NCBI GenBank assembly: GCA_963729715.1
Contig: CAVSPA010000007.1
Span: 384,001-448,000, forward strand
Source of the DNA: an uncultured delta proteobacterium
Lineage (GTDB): Bacteria; Desulfobacterota; Syntrophia; Syntrophales; UBA2185
DNA length: 64,000 nt
Direction: 5' to 3'
Each line of letters starts with the position of its first letter. Position 1 is the stretch's first letter. The position numbers were made by a program, and so were the translations under genes. The notes beneath the pieces were generated by a model, which was not told where the DNA came from, made no database searches, and worked only from the letters and a program-made list of their open reading frames with translations. Below are positions 6,748 to 10,957 of this stretch, piece after piece.

Positions 6748-6818
6748 TGCGAGGGAAGCGCGAAAACGCTTTTAGAAAAATCTTGACTTGACGCCCCCGC
6801 GCATATATAAGCACACAT

Positions 6819-6975
6819 CGGTTTTAGCATACCGGAACACGGTGCAAATCCGTGGCGGACCCGCCGCTGTAATCGGCGAGGCTCTTCACAATAGCTGGTC
6901 ACTGCCGGGGTTCACCCCGTTGGGAAGACGGTGAAGAGCCCTTGACCCGAAAGCCAGAAGACCTGCGCAAACCGA
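6819..6975 (+). ncRNA. Cobalamin (B12) riboswitch aptamer upstream of the peptide/radical SAM pair
   Basis: P1 TCGGTTT/AAACCGA; GGAA; P4 CACGG-TGCAAAT-CCGTG; GCGGACCCGC-CGCTGTAA; GTCACTG...GGGAAG; B12 box AGCCAGAAGACCTG. Confidence 0.9.
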
Positions 6976-6996
6976 GATAACCGGAATCCGATGGTA

Positions 6997-7040
6997 AAGG
7001 GTTCCGACTGACGCCAGTCGTCCGTCGGAACCCTTTTTTT
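6997..7040 (+). terminator. Rho-independent terminator (riboswitch expression platform)
   Basis: AAGGGTTCCGAC (6997-7008) / GTCGGAACCCTT (7024-7035) perfect 12-bp stem ending in a T7 tract. Confidence 0.85.
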
Positions 7041-7073
7041 ATTGTCCAAAAATTACAGGAAAGGAGAATGTAC

Positions 7074-7181
7074 ATGAAGAAAAAGAAAGCAAAAAAAGAT
7101 GTTATCGCGTATCGGAAGGGCTGCAAAGCCAAAGGAACCGGGCTTTCCCACTACATTCTGATGGACAGGAAAGCGAAATAA
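7074..7181 (+). CDS. cbpA: Modified-peptide (RiPP) precursor, CbpA-like, 35 aa: MKKKKAKKDVIAYRKGCKAKGTGLSHYILMDRKAK
   Basis: Below the ORF-track cutoff. AAGGAG RBS 7 nt upstream; its TAA overlaps the rSAM ATG (TAATG). The IAYRKxC..GTGLSHYILM core matches my recollection of the TIGRFAM CbpA family (not verified by search). Confidence 0.8.
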   Translation: MKKKKAKKDVIAYRKGCKAKGTGLSHYILMDRKAK

Positions 7182-8602
7182 TGGCGGTCACGAAAAAGAA
7201 GGTAATCAAGGACGCGGCGGCCCCCTCGCGGGGCCGCTTCGTCAACACGGGTAACGGTCCCACATTTCAACCAATCGATATCGGCCACCGGCAATATTTG
7301 GCCGTCATCGAACCGGATACGGCTTTCTGGTCCCTCATGAAGCGCGAAAAAATCGCCGACGTCTTTTCCGCAGGCGAGCTCACAAGAGCCTTTGCCGGAA
7401 AATCCCGGCAGTTCGCGCGGGAGATAGATAAACTGCGGTTCGGGCTCACGCCCTCTGCGGTCTACTTCAATCCTACCGAACGGTGCAACATGAACTGCAC
7501 CTACTGTTACATACCTGAGAAGATGAGAAAGAAGGGCAAACACATGCCCGAAAAGAAACTTCTTGAGGCGCTGGAGCTCCTGAAACGGCACTTCGGCAAG
7601 ACCCTGTCTAAGGGTTCCATGCCTCAGATCATCTTCCACGGGGCGGAGCCCCTGCTCAATCGTGATGCTGTCTTCGCCGGCATCGAGAAATACGGGAAGG
7701 ATTTTCTCTTCGGCATCCAGACCAATGCAACACTCCTCGACGATGAGGCCGCCAAGTTCCTTACTAGCCGCAAGGTGAGCATCGGACTTTCGCTCGACGC
7801 TCCCACCGCACAGATTGCCGATCGCACCCGGAAGAACTGGGAAGGCCAGGGAACTTTCAAGCACGTGCTTGCAGCCATGAAGCGGCTTGGTGGCTACGAA
7901 GGCTGGAGCGTTATCTGCACCGTCACCGCCGCAAACAAGCGGCATCTTACCAGGCTGGTGGATTTTTTTCACGAGCGAGAGGTGCCCACATGCCTGATGA
8001 ACATCCTTCGTTGCACACTTCCGCCCTCACGCAGCCTGAAGCCGGACGATGCAGCAGCGGCCAGGCATTTCCTCGCCGCTTTAGACCGCACCTACGAACT
8101 CTATAGAAAGACCGGCCGCAGACTGACGGTGGGAAATTTTGCCAATATCATCCTTGCCATCATCGCGCCCGCGGCGCGCAGGCTCATGTGCGACATCTCT
8201 CCCTGCGGCGGCGGCAGATGTTTTTTTGCATTGGCACCCAACGGCGATATGTTTCCGTGTAGTGAATTCATCGGTCTCGACCGCTTCCGCGCGGGAAACC
8301 TTTTTGAAGATGATATTTCGCGGCTGATGGACTCCGAACAGTTCCGTCTGGTGACAGGCCGCAAGGTTGAGGACATCGAGCCATGCCGGCGCTGCGCCAT
8401 CCGGCACTTCTGCGGATCTCCATGCCCGGCCGAGGCCTACGAGATGAACGGCGGCATGGACAAGACTGGCGCCTTCTGTGAGTTCTACGAAGAGCAGGTG
8501 CGCTACGCTTTCCGCGTTATCGCCGATGGAAAGGTGGACGCCTACCTCTGGGACAACTGGGACAAGGGGATGAAAGAAACCTTCAATATAGGAAGCTCTT
8601 GA
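7181..8602 (+). CDS. cbpB: Peptide-modifying radical SAM/SPASM enzyme, CbpB-like
   Basis: CxxxCxxC motif (CNMNCTYC), FHGAEPLL, SPASM cysteines CGGG..C...PC...CRRC..RHFCGSPC...C; translationally coupled to the peptide ORF. Confidence 0.85.
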   Translation: MAVTKKKVIKDAAAPSRGRFVNTGNGPTFQPIDIGHRQYLAVIEPDTAFWSLMKREKIADVFSAGELTRAFAGKSRQFAREIDKLRFGLTPSAVYFNPTERCNMNCTYCYIPEKMRKKGKHMPEKKLLEALELLKRHFGKTLSKGSMPQIIFHGAEPLLNRDAVFAGIEKYGKDFLFGIQTNATLLDDEAAKFLTSRKVSIGLSLDAPTAQIADRTRKNWEGQGTFKHVLAAMKRLGGYEGWSVICTVTAANKRHLTRLVDFFHEREVPTCLMNILRCTLPPSRSLKPDDAAAARHFLAALDRTYELYRKTGRRLTVGNFANIILAIIAPAARRLMCDISPCGGGRCFFALAPNGDMFPCSEFIGLDRFRAGNLFEDDISRLMDSEQFRLVTGRKVEDIEPCRRCAIRHFCGSPCPAEAYEMNGGMDKTGAFCEFYEEQVRYAFRVIADGKVDAYLWDNWDKGMKETFNIGSS

Positions 8603-8624: not shown

Positions 8625-9368
8625 TTACTTTAGCTTCTTTTCTATCTCTTTCCAATTCTCTACGACTTCCGCGTCCTCCATGGAATCAAAACTAAAGGCA
8701 AGCGGCTTATACTCCTGGGCGGATTCAATAACGTCCGGCCCCCCGATTATCGCCTTAATCTGCAAATCCCTTTCTTTGATTTCCCTGAATACTTCGCCCT
8801 GACCCCAGGGGAGCACAGGTGCAACAGGAAAATTATTTTTCTTCAGCCATGATCTCACAGATTCCAGACTCAAAAGACCTTTCAGGAGATAGACGATGGG
8901 AAATCTTTTATGGATTCTTGTCACGGCCTTACTGCTTTCCGGTCTTTCTTTTTCTCCAAACGGCCCTTCCAGCAGCGAGCCCCCAACATCAATAAAGACT
9001 ATCCGCGTTTTTTTCTCCAGTGCCAAGAGTATCCCGCTGTTCTTGTCTTCGCCGGATCTCACATTTATTTTGTGGAGACCCGTTCTTGCCGGGACAAATG
9101 TCTTGACGGCAAAGCCATCTCTCCCTGATAGGTTCTTCCCGATAGACCTTCCATCAACGATGAATTCCACAATCTCTCCGCTCTTGCTGAGAAGCGTTCC
9201 CCTTGTTTCCGCTCTGAGCATGACCTCCCGGCCCTTCAGAGCCACATCATCATAGACAAAGACCCGGGATAGCGCCGCATCCGGACAGATAACGAAGAGA
9301 AAAACAGATAAAATGAAAGCAAAGAGAATTCTCATACGATGCCTCGCCTGTACAAAAAAATGGGCCAT
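8625..9368 (-). CDS. Exported hypothetical protein, Ig-like N-domain plus HAD-like C-domain
   Basis: Signal peptide; IVFIDVGGSL resembles a degenerate HAD motif I. Confidence 0.6.
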   Translation of the reverse strand: MAHFFVQARHRMRILFAFILSVFLFVICPDAALSRVFVYDDVALKGREVMLRAETRGTLLSKSGEIVEFIVDGRSIGKNLSGRDGFAVKTFVPARTGLHKINVRSGEDKNSGILLALEKKTRIVFIDVGGSLLEGPFGEKERPESSKAVTRIHKRFPIVYLLKGLLSLESVRSWLKKNNFPVAPVLPWGQGEVFREIKERDLQIKAIIGGPDVIESAQEYKPLAFSFDSMEDAEVVENWKEIEKKLK

Positions 9369-9476
9369 ACCCTTATTTTTATATTAGATAATGCAGGTTC
9401 AGGCAAGGTGAATTTGGGAAGGGCATTGACATTGGTCGATTTCTGTAATAGATTTCTTTGTCTATATTATTTGATT

Positions 9477-10217
9477 ATGAAACAGTTAATTGTAAGAAAT
9501 ATAATCGAGCCGAACGGCAGCAAAAAAGGCAGATGCCTTGCCTGCGGCGCTACGCTGAAGACGGCCCGGCGCAAATACTGCTCCATGGAATGCCGGAAAC
9601 GTCTCCTTTACAAGTTGGATGTAAGAACGGGTCTGATAAGAGCCCTGAACGCGAAGTACGCAACATTCTATTTCTCCGAAGTCATGATAATAATGGACAT
9701 GCTCCCCTACGGGTCTGAGCAGATATTCAGCTTCTTCTATCCGCGGTCTCCCGGAAGCAAACCTGCCGAGGACTTCAGCAGGATGGCCGACATGCTGGGA
9801 AATATCTGGTGGAATGAAAGAAAGCGAACAAACAAGAGATACCTCGCGTCATTCCACCTTCTCGGAAAAGCCATCAAGACCGGCGCGCCATTAATCTCTG
9901 TTAAACCATCAATGGTAAAAGTCCCTTCCATTAAGGCGGCGCACTTATCTCATCTTAAACTTGACAAAGCCCAATTGAACGCGGCGGAACTGCAAAAAAG
10001 CGTTAAAGAAGCATATCGCAGGCAGGCGAAGGTACATCACCCCGATCTCGGAGGTGATGCGGCGACGTTCAGAAAACTCCACCAAGCGTACAGAGAGTTG
10101 ACTTCATGGGCGAGGAGACCCTCTTTCACAAAACGTCGTGGATTCCCCGATAAGTGGTTTTACGATGGGCGTACGAACAAATGGGTGCAGCCGATACCCT
10201 CGCAAATGCAAAGATGA
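9477..10217 (+). CDS. J-domain protein with N-terminal zinc ribbon
   Basis: CLAC...YCSMEC zinc motif; C-terminal KEAYRRQAKVHHPDLGGD J-domain (HPD). Start moved to ATG 9477 to avoid overlap with the divergent gene. Confidence 0.8.
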   Translation: MKQLIVRNIIEPNGSKKGRCLACGATLKTARRKYCSMECRKRLLYKLDVRTGLIRALNAKYATFYFSEVMIIMDMLPYGSEQIFSFFYPRSPGSKPAEDFSRMADMLGNIWWNERKRTNKRYLASFHLLGKAIKTGAPLISVKPSMVKVPSIKAAHLSHLKLDKAQLNAAELQKSVKEAYRRQAKVHHPDLGGDAATFRKLHQAYRELTSWARRPSFTKRRGFPDKWFYDGRTNKWVQPIPSQMQR

Positions 10218-10722: not shown

Positions 10723-10793
10723 TGCCTGTCAATTATATCTTGACAAAGAAACCCTCCTTTGTTACTCATCACTTGAAATGACAAAAGAATACG

Positions 10794-10957
10794 GATGGAT
10801 GTGTGGAAGAGGGGTTAAATGCCCCCGCTGCCCCGCAGCCGTGAAGGGAACGAAAGCCTCAAAAAGCCACTGTCATGAAAAGTGCATGCCGGGAAGGCGG
10901 GTGAGTAGGCAGCCCGAAGCCGGAAAACCAATCCATCGCGGTTCCTCGAGGGGGGAT
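10794..10957 (+). ncRNA. Cobalamin riboswitch upstream of the cob operon
   Basis: P1 GATGGAT/ATCCATC; GGAA-GGGG-TTAAATG-CCCC; GCTGCCCCGCAGCCGTGA; AAGCCACTG...GGGAAGGCG; AAGCCGGAAAACC; P13-like GTTCCTC-GAG-GGGGGAT. Confidence 0.88.

Follow-up and report, generated by a model that had tools for sequence, protein, structure and literature searches.

A Corrinoid Riboswitch, a 35-Residue Peptide, and a Radical SAM/SPASM Enzyme as a Candidate Corrinoid-Induced Unit of the Cobamide Lower-Ligand Step

The cbpAB Locus

The window analyzed here is a 64,000 nt stretch of DNA from an uncultured delta proteobacterium (CAVSPA010000007.1, assembly GCA_963729715.1, positions 384,001–448,000, forward strand), and all positions are given in window numbering. 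On its forward strand lies a cobalamin (corrinoid) riboswitch followed by two genes, cbpA (7074–7181), which encodes a 35-residue precursor peptide, and cbpB (7181–8602), which encodes a 473-residue radical S-adenosylmethionine (SAM)/SPASM enzyme. The original prediction for this region, made from the sequence alone, had read an aptamer, a terminator, a ribosome-binding site (RBS), and two overlapping reading frames out of the letters, and we recovered all of them. The aptamer (6818–6975) matches RF00174 at 6834–6962 with 77 bits, against a gathering threshold of 31.5; in the computed fold the arms of P1 lie at about 6818–6824 and 6969–6975 and loop L5 at 6859–6863. A P13 hairpin follows (6982–7006; arms 6982–6989 and 6999–7006, 9 nt L13 loop 6990–6998, −12.6 kcal/mol), as does an intrinsic terminator (6996–7040, −27.1 kcal/mol), which consists of a hairpin at 6996–7036 with its 5′ arm at 6999–7006 and its 3′ arm at 7026–7033, and a run of seven T; the hairpin is missing from the output of a simple terminator scan. 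The leader from 6810 to 7080 folds with z = −4.06, and none of 200 shuffled sequences is as stable. Further upstream, a candidate sigma-70 promoter on the same strand (6783–6811; −35 box 6783–6788, 17 nt spacer, −10 box 6806–6811, 5/6 matches in each box), read directly from the letters, would start the RNA near 6818; a consensus scan does not list it, because there the −10 box must end in T.

The RBS, AAAGGAG at 7060–7066 as read from the sequence, lies 7 nt ahead of the ATG at 7074. A second ATG at 7068 sits 1 nt from the RBS, and 7074 is therefore the likelier start of cbpA; the same purine run precedes cbpA in many homologous loci. The TAA of cbpA (7179–7181) shares 1 nt with the cbpB ATG at 7181. 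Riboswitch, cbpA, and cbpB form a single conserved unit with translational overlap.

The Peptide and the Enzyme

CbpA scores 57.5 bits on TIGR04164 (cobo_pep, CbpA; cut-off 35), and CbpB scores 694 bits on TIGR04163 (rSAM_cobopep, CbpB; cut-off 375) while covering model positions 1–428 of 428 and matching Pfam PF04055 and PF13186. Because both curated cut-offs are passed, the pair is, judged by its sequence, a member of the catalogued, named but uncharacterized CbpA/CbpB family, to which the original prediction had assigned it, and no sequence-level difference sets it apart from those models. An adjacent pair annotated cbpA-cbpB, as here, is found on a Methylovirgula plasmid. There (L272, 11804–16753) cbpAB adjoins pqqA-pqqD-pqqE, and no cob genes are annotated within 12 kb. 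In the openly accessible papers searched, we found neither a chemistry or role for TIGR04163/TIGR04164 nor a paper joining a cobalamin riboswitch, a radical SAM enzyme, and a precursor peptide.

Of 80 homologous loci drawn from many phyla, 77 have cbpA ahead of cbpB, and the other three are at contig ends with at most 120 nt of upstream sequence. The place proposed for the peptide, as partner and likely substrate of the enzyme, is supported. Among 63 aligned peptides, R14, C17, G21, G23, L24, S25, and H26 are invariant, and I11, T22, and Y27 are nearly so. The Cys/His/Tyr/Met core named in the original prediction is borne out for Cys17, His26, and, nearly, Tyr27, and not for Met, which occurs in only 43 of 61 unique cores. 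Immediately before the GLSH motif, 79 of the 82 unique cores have T, V, or I. The Cys-x-Ala-Lys-Gly-Thr stretch may resemble the cap helix of HgcA. In L137, L139, L142–L145, and L260–L265 the linker from Cys to GLSH is two residues longer, often with Val in place of Thr22. In a Verrucomicrobia-rich set of loci (L023–L025, L027, L061, L063, L065) TTG seems to be the start codon of cbpA, and most of these copies follow cbiC without a riboswitch of their own.

CbpB has the predicted CxxxCxxC radical SAM motif at C102/C106/C109 and a SPASM region with eight cysteines (337, 342, 360, 402, 405, 411, 415, and 433), which are kept in 49/49 close relatives. Its predicted structure (predicted local distance difference test (pLDDT) score 91) begins with an N-terminus resembling a RiPP recognition element (RRE; RiPP, a ribosomally made peptide with post-translational modifications), with three strands and two helices before the barrel. 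The best match among solved structures, in sequence and in fold, is the SCIFF ranthisynthase CteB (PDB 5WGG/5WHY; E 1.9e-49), which likewise combines RRE, radical SAM, and SPASM parts, followed by anSME. PapB is the next NCBIfam match, with a model score of 140 bits that is below its cut-off of 340; the SCIFF maturase (103 bits, cut-off 425) and MftC (58 bits, cut-off 265) models score lower still, and the families nearest CbpB are all peptide or protein maturases. CbpB and CbpA differ from CteB and CteA in that identity is about 20%, CbpA has one Cys rather than six, and CbpB is under B12 control. CbpB also has an extra conserved SPASM cysteine relative to CteB, and the alignment shows an upstream Cys in CteB too; the first auxiliary cluster (AuxI) of CteB is reported to have an open site, in contrast to the eight conserved SPASM cysteines of CbpB. 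A distant group of CbpB-like enzymes (P0025, P0037, P0039, P0043, P0046, P0049–P0065; 23–30% identity) retains the N-terminal motif along with the two upstream SPASM cysteines.

A model of the CbpA–CbpB complex scored 0.83, compared with 0.01 for the best control. The mark set for such models is reached by 116/157 solved pairs and 2/215 mismatched pairs; our runs had at least 52% of contacts in common and a partner pLDDT of at least 49. In the model, CbpA residues 10–12 lie on CbpB strand 49–54, residues 13–17 pass the AuxI cysteines, and residues 8–30 contact the AuxI region and the barrel strands, which supports binding of CbpA by CbpB. Regarding the chemistry, a Cys32–Thr37 thioether (i+5) has been reported in CteA in vitro (PMC8326336). 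The spacing from Cys17 to Thr22 of CbpA equals it, and a thioether is therefore our first guess for CbpB. We consider it marginally probable that the enzyme introduces a single SAM-dependent cross-link, for which the likeliest form is an S–C(gamma) thioether, as in CteB, joining Cys17 and the beta-branched Thr22.

A Riboswitch Predicted to Activate

The strand 6999–7006 is common to the 3′ arm of P13 and the 5′ arm of the terminator, so that the two hairpins are mutually exclusive. This shared-strand layout is present in 58 of 81 loci (the window plus the 80 homologous loci), the remainder being mostly copies within cob operons or at contig ends, and an Rfam cobalamin aptamer stands immediately upstream of cbpAB in 10 of the 11 loci tested from the 80. 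The shared strand is terminator-paired at 96–100% per position across 46 unique platforms. P13 itself is 91.5% paired, compared with only 8–64% for slid-register controls, a figure whose weight is reduced by partial circularity because the platforms were picked by at least six P13 pairs. Compensatory changes are less circular: 6/8 P13 pairs vary on both sides (53 of the 58 platforms, 41 distinct sequences), with 19 cells of two-sided change versus 4.7 ± 1.8 in shuffles, none of 500 of which reach it. In the window L5 is ACCCG and L13 holds UGGU, which allows four L5–L13 pairs, and the two central G–C pairs are invariant across platforms.

The same arrangement is found in the activating cobT riboswitch of Alkalihalobacillus halodurans, where L5 is GCCCG, L13 is UGGC, again with four possible pairs, P13 is exclusive with the terminator, and cobinamide induces eightfold by a mechanism shown by mutation (PMC10653944). 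The two switches have in common a five-base L5, UGG-N in L13, and a P13 3′ arm that also serves the terminator; they differ in phylum and target, and switching here is predicted from the letters. The first kissing pair differs as well, being A–U in the window and often unpaired in its relatives (58 platforms: A–U 25, U–U 12, U–C 8, A–C 7, U–A 1, L5 not read 5). PMC10653944 describes one natural activating case, compared with 58/81 loci here. Given that the layout is that of the activating switch, corrinoid should turn cbpAB on, and by this analogy we consider activation quite likely. A classical P13, apart from the terminator, occurs in three divergent cobC operons adjoining cbpAB. The riboswitch of this genome's own cobC-U-T-S-cbiB operon (L148 12008, minus strand, G000:C7) also has a classical P13, together with a second hairpin (−10.1 kcal/mol) that overlaps its terminator.

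Other Targets of the Activating Platform

A pattern consisting of the aptamer end and L13 was searched for in 401 genomes of the phylum and gave 46 matches in 42 genomes, against 1 match for the reversed pattern. Aptamer, P13, and overlapping terminator are all present in 33 of the 46, and these full ON-type platforms precede cbpAB (20, a count that is partly by construction because the pattern was designed on cbpAB leaders), cobT (7), bza operons (2), or a zinc dehydrogenase/TrpD-like pair (4), with no other target among the 33. Two further matches, one cobT and one cbpAB, fall narrowly outside the rules of the script, so the platform precedes cobT, as in A. halodurans, in 7–8 sampled genomes; a Firmicutes-type genome (L162) has the same platform ahead of cobT. 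The remaining matches comprise five with aptamer and P13 and no overlapping terminator, before cbiL, cbiC, btuC, and cbiM (2), and six without an aptamer. Ring synthesis, cobalt uptake, and B12 uptake therefore carry another layout.

One of the two ON-platform bza operons contains a ThiC-like gene, cobT, and an O-methyltransferase gene, and the other contains a ThiC-like gene, an O-methyltransferase-DUF2284 gene, and a BzaD-like gene. Their position behind the platform (bzaF-type operons at L200 and L201, genomes G148 and G141) suggests that benzimidazole synthesis is corrinoid-induced in both genomes. The dehydrogenase/TrpD-like pairs (L199, L243, L244, and L245 in G030, G320, G369, and G141) are followed by cobT-cobS in G030, and we regard the zinc dehydrogenase and TrpD-like phosphoribosyltransferase as a candidate for an undescribed lower-ligand module. 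From these targets we infer that cbpAB belongs to an activating lower-ligand regulon with cobT and bza, which is a new assignment; the original prediction missed both the direction of the switch and this regulon. The platform is thus shared, in two genomes, with the bzaAB/bzaF-cobT-bzaC-D pathway (PMC6461909), and cbpAB would serve the same step. The enzymes of that pathway are unrelated to CbpB, and bza and cbpAB were not found together in the 330 sampled genomes described below, with a second ThiC as proxy.

Neighbors and Genome Co-occurrence

In 94 cbpAB loci, two of them duplicated, the neighbor seen most often is cobT (25 loci, in 9 of them directly downstream). Near cbpAB there are also late cob genes in 36 loci, ring genes in 15, and cbiM/cbiQ in 7, and about a dozen cbpAB copies are within cob operons without a switch of their own. 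The view that no protease or exporter accompanies the pair extends beyond the window, as no protease, exporter, or immunity gene recurs among the clustered neighbors of the 94 loci. A RiPP can do without a dedicated protease or exporter gene. In one locus (L266 4503–5786, G352) a ThiC-like gene stands between cbiM and cbiQ in a cob operon that holds cbpAB; it was rejected as a Bza enzyme, since it groups with true ThiC and is 86% identical to a ThiD-adjacent copy. In the Omnitrophota loci L058, L062, L064, and L080, the cob and btu genes repeatedly flank a gene for an ATP pyrophosphatase resembling diphthine-ammonia ligase.

Fifty CbpB genomes (two handles being one genome) were compared with 30 without CbpB. 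CobT was present in 47/50 versus 22/30, CobQ in 42/50 versus 14/30, and CbiD in 36/50 versus 9/30; some of the 14 CbpB genomes without CbiD may owe this to incompleteness. CbiZ was considered as an alternative to cbpAB and dropped, as it occurs in 17/50 and 6/30 with no exclusion. For the Bza enzymes a second ThiC-like gene was taken as a proxy for BzaF/BzaAB in 330 genomes of the phylum, 29 of which have CbpB; copy number was used because the TIGR04386 cut-off passes only 1/330 genomes. A second ThiC-like gene was found in 0/29 CbpB genomes and in 58/301 others (Fisher p = 0.004, kin not being independent). The two alternate inside two families (G031/G315 and G320/G369). In a tree, three switch- or cob-linked BzaF-type copies (100/100) stand apart from the ThiC of CbpB genomes, as does the BzaA/BzaB pair of G369.

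Corrinoid Genes of the Host and the Rest of the Window

By markers the host genome is 100% complete and 6.5% contaminated. We found in it no cobalt chelatase (CbiK, CbiX, CobN) and none of the ring-synthesis genes CbiC, CbiD, CbiG, and CbiH. It has riboswitch-led btuBFCD-type uptake, CbiZ, cobC-cobU-cobT-cobS-cbiB, cobD-cobQ, and CobO, and, by the usage of PMC6461909, counts as a cobinamide salvager. The host CobT has Tyr80/Met88, and a hydrophobic 80/88 type has been linked to benzimidazole preference (PMC4657239). No BluB was found in the genome, and its ThiC genes are all true ThiC; two copies with identical scores (G000:C12:4440–5696 and G000:C15:3010–4266) are probably an assembly duplicate or contamination. 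A CbiA-like match was set aside as a B12 gene, because it sits among dsrAB, dsrC, and membrane-complex genes (L151, G000:C7:490000–505050). The protein is presumably the siroheme amidase DsrN. The CbiM-like transporter of the host adjoins nickel-insertion genes.

Downstream of cbpB, the next gene is convergent (8625–9368, minus strand), as the original prediction had it. The cob operon that it placed further on is also there: a second cobalamin riboswitch (10780–10950) is followed by a cobD-cobQ fusion, cobO, and a partial cbiJ, 2.2–2.5 kb downstream and through 14978. The cbiJ covers only Pfam model positions 73–231 of 234, and the stretch is probably the remnant of a lost ring-synthesis operon. 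A 292-residue protein encoded at 9339–10217, which begins like a zinc ribbon and carries a weak DnaJ-like domain at its C-terminus, is kept in close relatives only.

Proposed Role and Alternatives

The targets of the platform lead us to place the action of cbpAB in the lower-ligand branch of cobamide synthesis, which we consider probable. Within that branch our best reading, which we offer tentatively, is a corrinoid-induced helper of the lower-ligand step in which CbpA becomes a His-donating cobinamide carrier. Without ligand the terminator would form and cbpAB would be off. The ligand would be a corrinoid, most probably base-less cobinamide that has been imported or that CbiZ has set free. 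Once it is bound to the aptamer, L5 would kiss L13, P13 would hold the shared strand, and cbpAB would be transcribed. CbpA would be made in step with CbpB and dock on it, the peptide to residue 30 reaching the barrel, and CbpB would install one SAM-dependent cross-link. The uncut, cytoplasmic, very basic product would then bind the base-less corrinoid via invariant His26, and the carrier would hold it for CobU/CobT/CobS in cells unable to make their own benzimidazole. Corrinoid binding by His26 is a predicted part of the carrier form and is just as tentative. Pyrroloquinoline quinone (PQQ) and mycofactocin offer a parallel, in that a short invariant peptide and a SPASM enzyme serve metabolism, not defense; cbpAB resembles both in its short invariant peptide and SPASM enzyme and differs from them in being without accessory oxidase, protease, or chaperone genes.

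In one alternative, CbpA is instead the raw material for the lower base: CbpB would cleave or cross-link the Ser-His-Tyr core and so replace bzaF, and an imidazole- or benzimidazole-type base, released directly or, as in the case of PQQ, by housekeeping proteases, would be activated by CobT. We regard this as possible and rather doubtful, the release and activation steps included. It draws on the same regulon evidence, on the missing second ThiC-like gene (0/29 versus 58/301) and its alternation with cbpAB inside two families, on cobT directly downstream in 9/94 loci, and on the modeled reach of the CbpA core into the CbpB barrel. The host CobT is moreover of the benzimidazole-preferring type (PMC4657239), yet the host has no BluB and only true ThiC, and 42% of predicted producers are without known base genes (PMC6461909). 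Weighing against a base source are the presence of a single enzyme with no recurring tailoring gene or protease, the thioethers made by the closest enzymes, the one case of Phe for Tyr27, and the fact that cells without bza can import bases. We know of no route from Ser-His-Tyr residues to a known base. The reported tuning of cobT regulation to distinguish cobinamide from complete cobamides (PMC9600662) fits both a carrier and a base source; an intact carrier is narrowly favored because no processing genes exist.

A number of observations count against the proposed role, its switch, or its chemistry. P13 is less stable than the terminator by 14.5 kcal/mol, so that reaching the ON state would take the kissing loop together with kinetics; no covariation with L13 is seen for the first L5 base in the 58 platforms. 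The spacing from Cys to GLSH is 5, 6, and 7 residues in 63, 6, and 13 of the 82 unique cores, the CteA obtained by E. coli expression was linked Cys32–Thr34 and not Cys32–Thr37 (PMC8326336), and C337 brings the conserved SPASM cysteines of CbpB to eight, compared with seven in the ranthisynthase CrpC (PMC13692751). The pass of the complex model may be a product of likeness to CteA–CteB. In about ten loci cbpAB is part of a cob operon and follows cbiC, and in 3 cbiM comes immediately next. BluB, rare as it is in CbpB genomes, is above cut-off in 2/50 of them versus 0/30, and hydrophobic CobT residues 80/88, rejected as a marker of CbpB genomes, occur with and without CbpB alike. The second ThiC is a proxy only (5 copies in 4 genomes checked); counting the two identical ThiC of this genome as two gives 1/29 and p = 0.039, 2/34 CbpB genomes outside the sample of 330 have two long ThiC-family matches, and both cbpAB and a second ThiC are missing from most cobT genomes.

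The remaining explanations move the pair away from the lower ligand or from peptide modification. A usual repressing switch, or another B12 task such as a biosynthesis helper, corrinoid reduction, or B12-enzyme maturation, is in our view unlikely: the enrichment of CbiD and CobQ in CbpB genomes, the dozen or so cbpAB copies in cob operons without their own switch, and the failure of platform models for one of two S. ovata riboswitches (PMC10653944) fit it, and they are met by the strand shared between P13 and terminator with its two-sided compensatory changes, by the classical separate P13 before the divergent cobC operons, and by the lower-ligand genes that the platform otherwise precedes. 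The original prediction had proposed a role in cobalt or corrinoid handling; its link to corrinoid metabolism is supported and its cobalt part is not. Modified CbpA as a cobalt chelator or a chaperone for cobalt insertion, with its invariant Cys and His, cbiM directly after cbpB in 3/94 loci, cbiM/cbiQ near in 7, and cbiX following in G352, is quite unlikely, as the host lacks the chelatases and ring genes named above, which makes cobalt handling unlikely there, and 14/50 CbpB genomes, some perhaps incomplete, are without CbiD. A cobalt chelator would be of little value to a cell in which cobalt is never inserted, the cbiM genes carry the non-overlapping platform, and an ON switch induced by corrinoid, as the layout predicts, has the wrong sign for cobalt scavenging and so does not support a cobalt role. 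The variable Cys-to-core spacing, the eighth SPASM cysteine, and the missing processing genes would also suit a CbpA that is a small subunit or leader peptide of a CbpB acting on a corrinoid or a free base; the RRE-like domain, the modeled docking of the leader as a strand with the core in the barrel, and nearest families made up entirely of peptide or protein maturases make this very unlikely. An exported antimicrobial or signaling RiPP, suggested by a general resemblance to ranthipeptide clusters, is hardly credible for a pair under corrinoid control with a core that is near-invariant across many phyla and, over 94 loci, without an exporter, protease, or immunity gene that recurs.

Conclusions

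The cassette itself was already catalogued; new here are the proposal that it belongs to a lower-ligand regulon of the activating kind and the mutual exclusion of cbpAB and bza, as judged by a second ThiC-like gene. The orphan CbpAB becomes a two-gene, testable candidate for the missing lower-base genes or for a cobinamide carrier. It is conceivable, though we doubt it, that cbpAB stands in for bzaF in many anaerobes as a peptide route to a cobamide lower base, induced by cobinamide via widespread activating riboswitches; if that were true, one piece of a coenzyme-B12-type cofactor would have been cut out of a ribosomal peptide. Our results suggest that activating corrinoid riboswitches are perhaps common in anaerobes, where they would mark lower-ligand genes, and the ON platform can be used to find further genes of this kind.

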